DNA of 64,000 bases from an uncultured Gammaproteobacteria bacterium (GTDB lineage Bacteria; Pseudomonadota; Gammaproteobacteria; Xanthomonadales; Ahniellaceae), in the NCBI GenBank assembly GCA_964614825.1, contig CAZTNB010000001.1, positions 338 through 64,337 of the forward strand, read 5' to 3'. Under the pieces are notes generated by a model that did not search any database, was not told the DNA's origin, and saw nothing but the letters and a program-made list of their open reading frames with translations. The translations under genes and the position numbers were made by a program. This document shows, in pieces, positions 29,904 through 42,659 of this stretch; the first letter of the stretch is position 1, and each line of letters starts with the position of its first letter.

Positions 29904-32900
29904 TCAGGCCTCGCCGCGGCCGAGCCACCTGCGCAGGCGCTGCAGCCATCCGGGCCGGGTCGACGCCGGCTCCGGCATCGACGGCGCGGCCGCCGCGCCC
30001 GGCATCGCCGCCGCGCATTCCGCCGCCACCTGCTCCAGGGTCTGGAACACGAAGGCGCGCGGGCTCAGTCGCGCTCCGGTGCGCGCCTCGAGCAGCGCGA
30101 CCGCGCGCATGATCAGCAGCGAATGGCCGCCGAGGTCGAGGAAGTTGTCGCGCAGGCCGATCGCCGCCACGCCCAGCAGCTCGCGCCACACCTCCGCCAC
30201 CGCCTGCTCGGCCGCGCTGCGCGGCGCGTCGTCGCGACGACGTTCGCTGGCCGCGGTCGGCGGGGCGACGGCCGGCAGTGCGCGCCGGTCGAGCTTGCCG
30301 TTGGGCGTCAGCGGCAAGCGCTCCAGCGGCACGTACAGCGCGGGGATCATGTAGTCGGGCAGTTCCAGCCGCAGGTGCGCGCGCAGGTCGGCGGCATCGG
30401 GCAGCGTGGCTTCGCGGCCGACCAGGTAGGCGACCAGGCGCGCGCCGCCGTCCGGCCCGGGCGCCGCGACCACCGCGGCCTGCGCGACCGCGGGATGACG
30501 CGCCAGCGCGTGCTCGATCTCGCCGGCCTCGATCCGGTAGCCGCGCACCTTGACCTGCTGGTCGAGGCGACCCAGGAGCTGCAACTGGCCGTCGCCGCGC
30601 CAGCGGCCGAGGTCGCCGGTGCGGTAGCGCAGGCGGCCGCCCTGCGCCGCATCGGCGACGAAGCGCTCCGCGCTGAGCTCGGGGCGCCGGTGGTAGCCCA
30701 GGGCCACGCCACTGCCGCCGATCCAGAGCTCGCCGGCCACGCCGATCGGCACCGGTGCGCCCTCGGCATCGAGCACCTCGACCTGCGTGTTGGCGATCGG
30801 CCGGCCGATCAGGATGTCGCCCTGCCCCGGCCGGATCCGCGCGCAGGCGGACCACACCGTGGTCTCGGTCGGCCCGTACAGGTTCCACAGCTCGCCGCTG
30901 CGCCGCAACAGGTCCTCGGCCAGGTCCACCGGCAGCGCCTCGCCGCCGCACAGCGCCTTCCAGTGCGGGCCGCCGCGCCATCCGGCCTCGACCAGCAGGC
31001 GCCAGGTGGCGGGCGTGGCCTGCAGCGTGTCGACCCGGTGCCGCTCCAGCAGGCCGCGCAGCGCGTGGCCATCGCTGGCTTCCTCGCGCGTGGCCAGCAC
31101 CACCTGCGCGCCCACTGCCAGTGGCAGCAGCAGTTCCAGCACCGCGATGTCGAAGGACAGCGTGGTCACCGCCGCCAGCCGCGCATCGGGCGCCAGGCCA
31201 GGACGCTCGCGCATGGCCTGCAGGAAGTTGACCACCGCGCGCTGCGGCACGCGCACGCCCTTGGGCTGGCCGGTGGAGCCGGAGGTGTAGATGAGATAGG
31301 CCAGCGCCTCGCCCTCGATCGCCGCCGTGTCCGCGGCAGGCGCCGGGACGGCCGCGAGCGCCACGTCGATGTGCAGCACGCGCTCCGGCGCGATCGATGG
31401 CGCGCCGGCGGCGTCGTCGACCAGCACCAGCCGCGCGTCCGAATCCTCGAGCATGAACTGCAGGCGCTGCGGCGGGAACGCGGGATCCAGCGGCAGGTAG
31501 GCGGCGCCGGATTCGAGCACGCCCAGCAGCGCCGCCAGCATCGCCGGCGAACGCGACAGGTGCAGGCCGACCACGTCGCCGGCGCCGATCCCGCGCGCGT
31601 GCAACGCGGCCGCGACCGCGCGCGCCTGCGCGCCGAGGGTGGCGTAGCTCAGCGACACCTCGCCGCAGCGCAGCGCGATCCGGTCCGCGTGCGCGGCGAA
31701 GGACGGCGCCAGCAGCGCGCTCACGCTGCTGACCGCGGGCGGCGCCGTGGCGGTGTCGTTCCATTGCGCGATGCGCGCCAGCTCGTCGGTGCCGGCGCGG
31801 GCCAGGTCGCGCAGGCCGGCGCGCGGCTCGCGCGCGATCCGCTCCAGCAGCTCCAGGTAGCGCCTGGCCAGCAAGGTCGCCGTTTCCGGCAGCAGGATGT
31901 CGCTGTTGTAGTTGAGGCCGCCGACCAGGCCGTCGGCGCCATCGAGGAACCACAGCGCCACGTCCTGCGCCGCCGAGGGCTGGAACACCGGCAGGTTGTG
32001 GTGCTCGAGGTTGCCCCAGGCCGCGGGGCGCTGGCGCGCGTCCTGGTAGGAGAAGAAGGCCTGGTAGATCGGGAAGCGGGCCGGATCGCGGCGCGTGTCC
32101 AGCACCCGCACGAGGTGCTCGAAGGGCACGTCCTGGCATCCGAAGGCATCGACCACCTCGGCGCGCACGGCTTGCAGCAGGGCGGGGAAGTCGAGCGCGT
32201 CGTCGATGCGCAGGCGCAGCGGCAGCGCATTGACGAAGAAGCCCATGACCGTCTCGAGCTCCGGCAGGTTGCGGCCGCGCACGGGCGTGCCGACCACGAT
32301 CTCGTCCTGCCCGCTGATCCGGTGCAGCAGCAGCGCCCAGGCGGCGAGCAGGGTCATGAACAGCGTGGCGCCCTCGTCGCGGCCGCGCTCGCGCAGCGCC
32401 TGCACCGTCGCGGCCGGCACGCGCAGCCATTCGGTGCCGCCGTCGCCGCTCTGCGTGGCCGGCCGCGCGTGGTCGGCTGGCAGGGCCAGCGCCTCGGGCG
32501 CGCCGGCCAGCTTGCGCCGCCAGTAGTCGAGCTGGCGCGCCAGCTCGGGGCCGGCCATCCATTCGCGGTGCCAGGCCGAGAAATCGACGTAGCTCACCGG
32601 CAGCGGCGGCAGCCGCGGCTCGCGCCGGGACTGGAAGGCGCCGTACAACGCCGCCATCTCCGCATAGAAGAGGTCGAACGACCAGCCGTCCCAGATCACG
32701 TGGTGGGCCATGAAGTAAAGCACGTGATGGCCGGGCTCGAGGCGGTACAGCGCGACCCGGAACAGCGGGCCGCGCGCGAGGTCGAAGGGCTGCGCGACCG
32801 CGTCCTCGAGCCGCCGCGCAAGTTCCGCCTCGCGTCGCGCCGGATCGAGCGCCGACAGGTCGATCAGCGCGATGTCCGTATCGACCGCTTCGAGCACGTG

Positions 32901-42659: not shown

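Follow-up and report, generated by a model that had tools for sequence, protein, structure and literature searches.

The window analyzed here, a 64,000-nucleotide stretch of contig CAZTNB010000001.1 from an uncultured gammaproteobacterium (Xanthomonadales; Ahniellaceae), carries on its minus strand, at positions 29904-42659, a gene for a 4251-residue megasynthase in which nonribosomal peptide synthetase (NRPS) and polyketide synthase (PKS) domains are combined with an aminotransferase. This gene belongs to a large conserved family. We propose, at a probability of about 0.5, that the family works within a Wzx/Wzy-type glycan pathway, and that this member builds a small diamino-acyl-Gly-Gly decoration.

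The architecture of the protein was established with Pfam profiles and a scan for catalytic motifs. The domain order is A-T-KS-AT-ACP-AMT-C-A-T-C-A-T, that is, adenylation (A), carrier (T), ketosynthase (KS), acyltransferase (AT), acyl carrier protein (ACP) and aminotransferase (AMT), followed by two modules that each begin with a condensation (C) domain. AMP-binding is matched three times (whole-protein E-value 1.6e-256), PP-binding four times and Condensation twice; ketoacyl-synt covers residues 628-877 and its C-terminal half 885-1001, Acyl_transf_1 covers 1152-1437, and Aminotran_3, at 1722-2034, lies between the ACP and the first C domain. These scores are far above the gathering cut-offs and the matches far beyond chance. 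The motif scan found the KS residues C799/H935/H973, the AT motif GHSVG, HHxxxDG in both C domains, the four carrier serines and the three A10 lysines. No ketoreductase (KR), dehydratase (DH), enoylreductase (ER), epimerization (E), thioesterase (TE) or reductase (R) domain was detected in the protein by Pfam. The gene is an intact hybrid of an NRPS and a type I PKS, laid out as follows.

29904-42659, minus: complete coding sequence, A1-T1-KS-AT-ACP-AMT-C1-A2-T2-C2-A3-T3 plus tail, from Pfam and motifs
41100-42587, minus: A1, loading adenylation domain, code DALWFGGTFK (Val-like), Asp235 present
40845-41042, minus: T1, carrier, GGDS with Ser571
39504-40778, minus: KS, Cys799/His935/His973
38340-39212, minus: AT, GHSVG with Ser1241; HAFH at 1337-1340, the malonyl-type motif
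37845-38072, minus: ACP, LGLDS with Ser1567
36315-37697, minus: AMT, class-III pyridoxal phosphate (PLP) aminotransferase, Lys1949, close homologue of the MycA AMT
34935-36263, minus: C1, HHIVLDG at 2264
33420-34892, minus: A2, code DILQLGLVWK (Gly)
33165-33353, minus: T2, GGHS with Ser3129
31770-33107, minus: C2, HHVIWDG at 3319
30270-31727, minus: A3, code DILQLGLVWK (Gly), the same as A2
30015-30227, minus: T3, GGHS with Ser4180
29907-30014, minus: C-terminal tail of 36 residues, a Pro/Ala-rich linker and then the basic amphipathic motif GWLQRLRRWLGRGEA

There is good support for GTG at 42659 as the start codon. It forms a GTGA junction with the TGA stop of hyd2, the gene upstream, GAGGAG lies 8 nucleotides before it, and scoring based on G+C at third codon positions (GC3) places the onset of coding at 42617-42659, at most 14 codons from the GTG. 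This minus-strand frame stays open all the way from 43370 down to 29904, but a start upstream of 42659 was rejected, as that stretch is the hyd2 gene in another frame. Also discarded, as artefacts of high G+C (about 73-74% in the window), were open reading frames at 30123-34952 (plus), 35187-43010 (plus) and 34606-42735 (minus), of 1609, 2607 and 2709 residues, which run antisense to the megasynthase or in another frame; GC3, scored for the 1609-residue frame, is low. The megasynthase itself has a GC3 of 0.93.

To read the substrate codes, the A domains were aligned with MAFFT to the GrsA fragment, which itself gives the Phe code DAWTIAAICK. The N-terminal domain is an amino-acid A domain (TIGR01733) followed by a T domain, and its code, DALWFGGTFK, includes Asp235. 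A2 and A3 have the identical code DILQLGLVWK, which agrees at nine of ten positions with DILQLGLIWK, which we take to be the reference code for Gly. These codes predict that A2 and A3 activate Gly and that A1 activates a Val-like, branched aliphatic amino acid.

Under established collinearity rules, A1 would thus load such an amino acid onto T1, and the KS, AT and ACP would extend this starter with malonate to a gamma-amino-beta-ketoacyl-S-ACP. The AMT, of the MycA type, would then convert the beta-keto group into a beta-amine, and two glycines would be added by C1/A2/T2 and C2/A3/T3. With a Val starter, the diamino acid would be a C7 compound, 3,4-diamino-5-methylhexanoate. Much of this had been proposed in an earlier, sequence-only reading of the window, and it stands. 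The domain calls, including the aminotransferase, KS and AT, are reproduced by profile models; S571, C799/H935/H973, S1241, HAFH at 1337-1340, S1567, K1949, HHIVLDG at 2264, S3129, HHVIWDG at 3319 and S4180 recur under the same numbers; the Val-like and Gly codes came out the same on the GrsA alignment; and the malonyl-type signature and the lack of KR, DH, ER and E domains were likewise found again. The analogy it drew with the AMT of iturin and mycosubtilin synthetases is sound, its beta,gamma-diaminoacyl-Gly-Gly product follows from the collinearity rules, with the Gly after the AMT kept across relatives, and the adjacent phosphopantetheinyl transferase that it named matches ACPS (PF01648).

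The chemistry is best compared with that of MycA (KS-AT-ACP-AMT-C-A-T), from the mycosubtilin/iturin pathways of Bacillus, which is the closest characterized system in this respect. Against the MycA AMT structures (PDB 6KFM/6KFU), the AMT domain scores 410 bits (E-value 1e-121); the match spans the entire domain and pairs the PLP lysines (YGK1949VVGGG here, YGKIIGGG in MycA), whereas glutamate-semialdehyde aminomutases reach only about 178 bits. The nearest solved relatives of the KS are KS domains of modular and hybrid PKSs. In both systems KS-AT-ACP-AMT is followed directly by a C domain, and a beta-keto thioester would become a beta-amino thioester before peptide extension; the MycA AMT aminates an ACP-bound beta-ketothioester with Gln as donor (PMC3870968). 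The two systems part in priming, length and release. A fatty acid, brought in via an acyl-ligase and an ACP, primes MycA, whereas here an amino-acid A-T would prime the KS, so that the predicted product is not a beta-amino fatty acid but a vicinal beta,gamma-diamine. Seven residues are incorporated in the MycA pathway, against two predicted glycines here. The iturin and mycosubtilin lines end in a cis-acting TE and form a macrocycle, while the present protein, which lacks TE and R domains, ends with T3 and the 36-residue tail and would not macrocyclize. Finally, the host is Gram-negative, and the gene lies in a polysaccharide locus. Flavipulchrin was set aside as a counterpart, since it is a fatty-acid-primed AMT lipopeptide. 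The condensation of an amino acid with one malonate to a gamma-amino-beta-oxo acid is known from the statine- and dolaisoleuine-type modules, A-T-KS-AT-KR-ACP, of the pepstatin and dolastatin pathways; there a KR gives a beta-hydroxyl, whereas here the AMT would give a beta-amine, and a KR is absent.

The gene is not alone. A metagenome scan gave at least 588 relatives among the 600 candidate stretches listed, and the ACP-AMT-C region, used as query, matched 1709 proteins at E < 1e-20. Identities of 55-79% are frequent among these, and the taxa represented include Xanthomonadales, Myxococcota, Rubrivivax and Gemmatimonadota. Cultivable carriers are, for example, Lysobacter korlensis, Pseudomarimonas salicorniae, Pseudoxanthomonas sacheonensis and Labilithrix luteola. 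We analyzed 88 loci of relatives, namely the best 80 metagenome loci and those from earlier look-ups. The order A-KS-AT-AMT-C-A-(C-(A)) is common to essentially all of them; in other genomes it is distributed, still collinear, among two to four genes, e.g., A-T-KS-AT, ACP-AMT and C-A-T-C-A-T. The starter code is Val-like in about 43 loci, Pro-like in about 17 and Thr-like in about 5. Most loci have a Gly-like A domain after the AMT, the third A domain, where there is one, is Gly-like too, and the Gly codes of related loci read DILQLG[LMV]VWK. In many loci the second NRPS module has no A domain, the line then being C-A-T-C-T followed by hyd2-hyd1. Because of these A-less modules, and because the A2 and A3 codes are identical in the window, the data suggest that a single Gly A domain loads both carriers, in trans or iteratively. 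The motif in the C-terminal tail (29907-29954, minus) recurs in relatives as G-x-L-x-R-L/W-L, after a Pro/Ala-rich linker, and stands at the C-terminus of the terminal NRPS protein in 14 loci; it may be a docking or membrane-association element or helix.

The sequence-only reading had called the gene an orphan, which the size of this family contradicts. Our literature search found no paper that characterizes the architecture of this family or the hyd pair, but a 2013 survey of PLP domains in NRPS and PKS proteins, bioinformatic only, had already cataloged A-CP-KS-AT-CP-PLP layouts (CP, carrier protein) (PMC3870968). Its examples are C6XWU5 of Pedobacter heparinus (A-CP-KS-AT-CP-PLP1, predicted Nrp-Mal-Gly), F9UAS6 of Thiocapsa marina (Nrp-Nrp-Mal-Gly) and G2E5C9 of Thiorhodococcus (PMC3870968). 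The surveyed proteins share the amino-acid-primed AMT module followed by Gly; the survey gives no product, genomic context or release mechanism for them (PMC3870968). What the sequence-only reading missed was the conserved hyd2/hyd1 pair, which would supply the absent TE function, and the conservation of the polysaccharide context.

That the gene is an isolated orphan unrelated to its neighbors, or a decaying one, is scarcely credible. The literature did yield no characterized counterpart, but there are hundreds of relatives with the same order and partners, so that the comparative data already contradict this idea; the frame is intact, GC3 is high, every motif is kept, and the start is translationally coupled to hyd2. 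In the protein collection, no relative exceeds 68% identity over the full queried ACP-AMT-C region, shorter partial matches reaching at most 79%, and relatives of hyd1 and hyd2 at 91% and 98% identity occur only on short Logan contigs. Unlike the megasynthase, the housekeeping proteins of the window are exactly present in the protein collection. Public assemblies of this organism may hold the megasynthase gene only in fragments or without a gene call.

It is also quite improbable, if less so, that the chemistry departs from collinearity, i.e., that the starter releases itself as a tetramate or gamma-lactam, that the AMT or one Gly module is skipped, or that A1 activates a non-proteinogenic acid. 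In favor of such a departure are the chemical argument that, after loading, an unprotected amine stands gamma to the thioester, the two positions at which the A1 code differs from the canonical Val code, and the tolerance of A-less modules in relatives. On the other hand, the catalytic motifs are all intact, and the full downstream C-A-T-C-A-T is conserved across the 88 loci. Exit of the chain at the ACP is therefore unlikely, because selection would not then maintain the downstream C-A-T-C-A-T.

How the chain would leave T3 is suggested by a pair of dissimilar alpha/beta-fold proteins encoded next to the megasynthase.

42656-43465, minus: hyd2, 269 residues, alpha/beta fold, G-L-R-F-G with Arg at the nucleophile elbow, no catalytic His
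43527-44453, plus: hyd1, 308 residues, alpha/beta hydrolase, G-V-C116-S-G elbow, Asp139, His259

The two genes are divergently transcribed, and the stop of hyd2 overlaps the start of the megasynthase. Among hyd1 homologues, G-x-C-S-G is present in 120 of 121, and Asp139 and His259 are invariant (120-121 of 121). In the AlphaFold (AF2) model of hyd1, with a confidence score (pLDDT) of 89, strand 110-115, helix 117-128, strand 132-138 and strand 249-254 place Cys116 at a strand-turn-helix elbow, and Asp139 and His259 after the following strands, with a spacing like that of thioesterase domains. The model thus fits a thioesterase-like alpha/beta hydrolase with a Cys-Asp-His triad, and catalysis is predicted. 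The homologues of hyd2 have G-L-R-[LF]-G in 120 of 121 and no late His, and its AlphaFold model (pLDDT 91) also has Arg at the elbow. Because of this Arg and the missing late His, hyd2 is most likely not a hydrolase. A hyd2 profile matched 2658 representative clusters at E ≤ 1e-30, the exosortase-associated pair described below included; hyd2 thus belongs to a very large family of apparent pseudo-hydrolases.

The pair is connected with chain release by three independent lines of evidence: the overlap of start and stop codons, in-frame fusions of hyd2 to the NRPS C-terminus (our loci L003/L004, L030, L037 and L044), and single-polypeptide hyd2-hyd1 fusions that keep both elbows (at least seven representative proteins). 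The pair adjoins the assembly line in 34 loci. We regard hyd1 as the candidate enzyme for release or transfer of the chain.

The nearest precedent for the pair is the accessory set of exopolysaccharide (EPS) loci with the XrtA/PEP-CTERM system, which comprises ligase_PEP_1 (TIGR03098), an ACP, hydr1_PEP (TIGR03100) and hydr2_PEP (TIGR03101). It shares a dissimilar alpha/beta-fold pair beside a carrier-dependent activating enzyme in an EPS locus, but has a simple ligase and ACP where the present locus has a 12-domain megasynthase. The best NCBIfam matches are TIGR03100 for hyd1 (81.8 bits; cut-off, 168.45) and TIGR03101 for hyd2 (105.6 bits; cut-off, 202.75), and ten sampled homologues gave the same matches with similar scores. 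Because the scores are roughly half the curated cut-offs, hyd1 and hyd2 are, on profile evidence, a sister subfamily of the exosortase-A hydrolases and not members. A canonical XrtA system was also considered for the locus and rejected: the diagnostic models are all below cut-off, and Pfam and NCBIfam scans of the open reading frames of the 64-kb window gave no family match to an exosortase (EpsH/XrtA). We know of no established function for the XrtA-associated set itself.

To define the genomic context of the family, the flanking genes of the 88 loci were clustered. Besides the pair of alpha/beta-fold proteins (34 loci), the recurring neighbors are a JmjC/Cupin_8 oxygenase (24), a TIGR04325 methyltransferase (18), an Sfp-type phosphopantetheinyl transferase (14), a Wzy_C-family protein (12), a polysaccharide deacetylase (12), Wzx (11), Bac_transf (10), GT2 (9), Poly_export (4) and UDP-glucose dehydrogenase (4). 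Among the loci with at least 5 kb of flank, recurring glycan genes are present in at least 32 of 60, which is a lower bound. In many loci the genes all point the same way and overlap at their junctions, in the order BacTr-JmjC-[assembly line]-GT2-deacetylase-Wzy_C-(Wzx or PaaK-like). The window holds hyd2, hyd1, the phosphopantetheinyl transferase, the methyltransferase, the JmjC oxygenase and a Wzy_C-Wzx-PaaK-like run, all inside a polysaccharide locus that runs on from about 15.8 kb as far as the window reaches.

44450-45187, minus: Sfp/HetI-type phosphopantetheinyl transferase, ACPS PF01648
29076-29894, plus: TIGR04325-family methyltransferase, 203 bits (cut-off, 80), a neighbor in 18 related loci
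28134-29039, minus: JmjC/Cupin_8 oxygenase, conserved triad H141-x-D143...H215, a neighbor in 24 related loci
23157-24416, minus: Wzy_C-family membrane protein, same gene order after the assembly line in related loci
21607-23160, minus: Wzx flippase, same gene order after the assembly line in related loci
20252-21643, minus: PaaK/F390-like adenylating enzyme, same gene order after the assembly line in related loci
15809-16936, minus: polysaccharide deacetylase, of a type repeatedly found immediately after the assembly line in related loci
45428-54545, plus: glycan genes, namely GT2, Acyl_transf_3, NodS-like methyltransferase, glycosyltransferase (GT), GFO/IDH-SDR fusion, GT4 and Asn-synthase-type amidotransferase

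As expected of a Wzx/Wzy locus, the window contains Polysacc_synt twice, Wzy_C, GT4 twice, GT2 twice and further glycosyltransferases. For the JmjC protein, solved structures offer no more than a marginal match, to FIH.

Context, fusions and motifs together suggest the later steps of the pathway. With no TE in the line, hyd1 would take the chain from T3 as a Cys116 thioester, with hyd2 as its non-catalytic partner, and would pass it to an undecaprenyl-linked sugar unit, the acceptor most likely being an amine unmasked by the co-conserved deacetylase. Alternatively, hyd1 would hydrolyze the chain and the PaaK-like adenylating enzyme would then ligate it. The lipid-linked product would be exported or ligated via Wzx and the Wzy_C-family protein, and the JmjC oxygenase and the TIGR04325 methyltransferase would tailor it.

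This proposal must be weighed against a free, secreted small molecule, such as a cationic diamino-peptide, a metal-binding vicinal diamine or a carenaemin-like glycosylated peptide, with the Wzx/Wzy genes serving only in its glycosylation or export. We consider this unlikely, yet a serious competitor. Its precedent is carenaemin of Collimonas arenae Cal35, where an AMT-containing PKS/NRPS depends on a separate Wzy-dependent locus through which the diffusible metabolite is glycosylated and secreted (PMC8313283). As here, PKS/NRPS genes with KS/AT and aminotransferase domains are tied to a Wzy-dependent oligosaccharide pathway; unlike here, there are two separate chromosomal loci, another domain order and other amino acids, a thioesterase, PUFA-type PKS genes and a diffusible antifungal product (PMC8313283). 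With the exosortase-A accessory set, the carenaemin loci are nonetheless the closest in context. Moreover, some compact loci of the family (one Bac_transf, GT2, deacetylase, Wzy_C, Wzx) would suit a small glycan as well as a polymer, and hyd1 could merely hydrolyze the thioester. Against a free molecule, however, no transporter family is among the recurring flanking clusters of the 88 loci, and an ABC, MFS or RND exporter, an MbtH protein and a resistance gene are all missing from the recurring neighbors. The window is a very large polysaccharide locus with many glycosyltransferases, two Wzx, three deacetylases and an amidotransferase, and a Cys nucleophile with a dead partner is unlike a plain hydrolytic type II TE.

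A further alternative, which we find improbable, is that the product modifies another envelope molecule, i.e., lipid A or the lipopolysaccharide (LPS) core, a membrane lipid or a protein, the Wzy_C protein then being a ligase or O-oligosaccharyltransferase rather than a polymerase. The system would then resemble aminoacylation systems that depend on carrier proteins. The NCBIfam matches of the Wzy_C protein, to the exosortase-A-associated putative O-glycosylation ligase and the O-linking oligosaccharyltransferase TfpM, point this way, weakly and below cut-off, and the A domains score on DltA models too. AlmEFG of Vibrio cholerae reportedly adds glycine or diglycine to lipid A. Speaking against such a target, no MBOAT, DltB/DltD-type, AlmG-type or LPS-core gene is present in the window or among the recurring neighbors, and every Wzy_C assignment is below the curated cut-offs.

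Several points weigh against the glycan-decoration proposal itself. Both the product and the acceptor are inferred, and the A-domain codes behind the former are predictions. The free gamma-amine beside a beta-keto or beta-amino thioester could self-cyclize to a tetramate or gamma-lactam; a linear product would therefore have to be processed fast or be N-protected. Within the flank covered, about half of the related loci have no recognized glycan gene, and the window has only some of the gene types known from other loci; no initiating phosphoglycosyl transferase and no Wza or Wzc was found in it by Pfam and NCBIfam scans of its open reading frames. Where Wzy_C follows the line directly, many loci have no hyd pair in view, so that subfamilies may not all release the chain alike. 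With hyd1 and hyd2 as queries, Foldseek and PDB sequence searches returned generic esterases and thioesterases (TM-scores 0.5-0.7), and gave no specific functional analogue of either.

The locus has further features. It holds two Wzx-like flippases, at 21607-23160 (minus) and 26602-28125 (plus), and three polysaccharide deacetylases, at 15809-16936, 24683-25366 and 62044-63294, one NodB-like and two like the N-terminal part of PgaB; that at 62044-63294 is a paralogue of that at 15809-16936. Such a gene set may serve more than one glycan, or one that is heavily de-N-acetylated. At 55955-59784 (plus) there is a second, small carrier-protein system. It consists of an 84-residue ACP and a ligase_PEP_1-like AMP-ligase (354 bits; cut-off, 592) at 55955-57752, an NAD-synthase-like amidotransferase (PRK00876, 466 bits) and a GNAT-like protein, followed by a 753-residue protein with no family match. 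The fusion at 49329-51407 (plus) is a 692-residue protein that joins a GFO/IDH/MocA oxidoreductase to an SDR epimerase/dehydratase, and its SDR half weakly matches thioester-reductase models.

Directly abutting the polysaccharide locus is a housekeeping block, thrS-infC-(rpmI)-rplT-pheS-pheT-ihfA-merR, at 8152-15621 (minus). For thrS, infC, rplT, pheS, pheT, ihfA and the MerR-family gene, the exact or near-exact matches carry the names of Xanthomonadales or Pseudomonadota metagenome-assembled-genome proteins. The gum cluster of Xanthomonas is also said to lie beside pheST-himA. At the far end of the window, at 2452-7530 (minus), are an alpha/beta hydrolase, a TonB-dependent receptor and an AraC-family regulator; with the housekeeping genes in between, these are probably unrelated to the locus.

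The individual parts of the system are familiar, and it is the family, more than this one gene, that is of interest. What we did not find described in the literature is the amino-acid-primed AMT module, the release pair of a Cys-hydrolase and a pseudo-hydrolase, and the operon-level integration with glycan assembly. Tentatively, and at somewhat less than even odds, we propose that a thiotemplate NRPS-PKS line is an integral part of a Wzx/Wzy operon and places a cationic vicinal-diamine peptide (X-beta-amino-Gly-Gly) on an undecaprenyl-linked sugar, and that a Cys-hydrolase/pseudo-hydrolase heterodimer, sister to hydr1_PEP/hydr2_PEP, offloads the chain; the product would be an unrecognized class of glycan.

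If this proposal is correct, many Gram-negative bacteria of soil and water (among them metagenome-assembled genomes of Xanthomonadales, Myxococcota, Burkholderiales-like bacteria and Gemmatimonadota) would decorate polysaccharides by means of a full NRPS-PKS line, and positively charged beta,gamma-diamino-acyl peptides would be a new chemical class on surface glycans. The hydr1_PEP and hydr2_PEP proteins would gain a role, that is, acyl transfer from a carrier protein to a glycan, and a testable function would be offered for a large family of paired alpha/beta-fold proteins. Genome mining scores such clusters as NRPS-T1PKS natural-product biosynthetic gene clusters; they may encode no diffusible metabolite.

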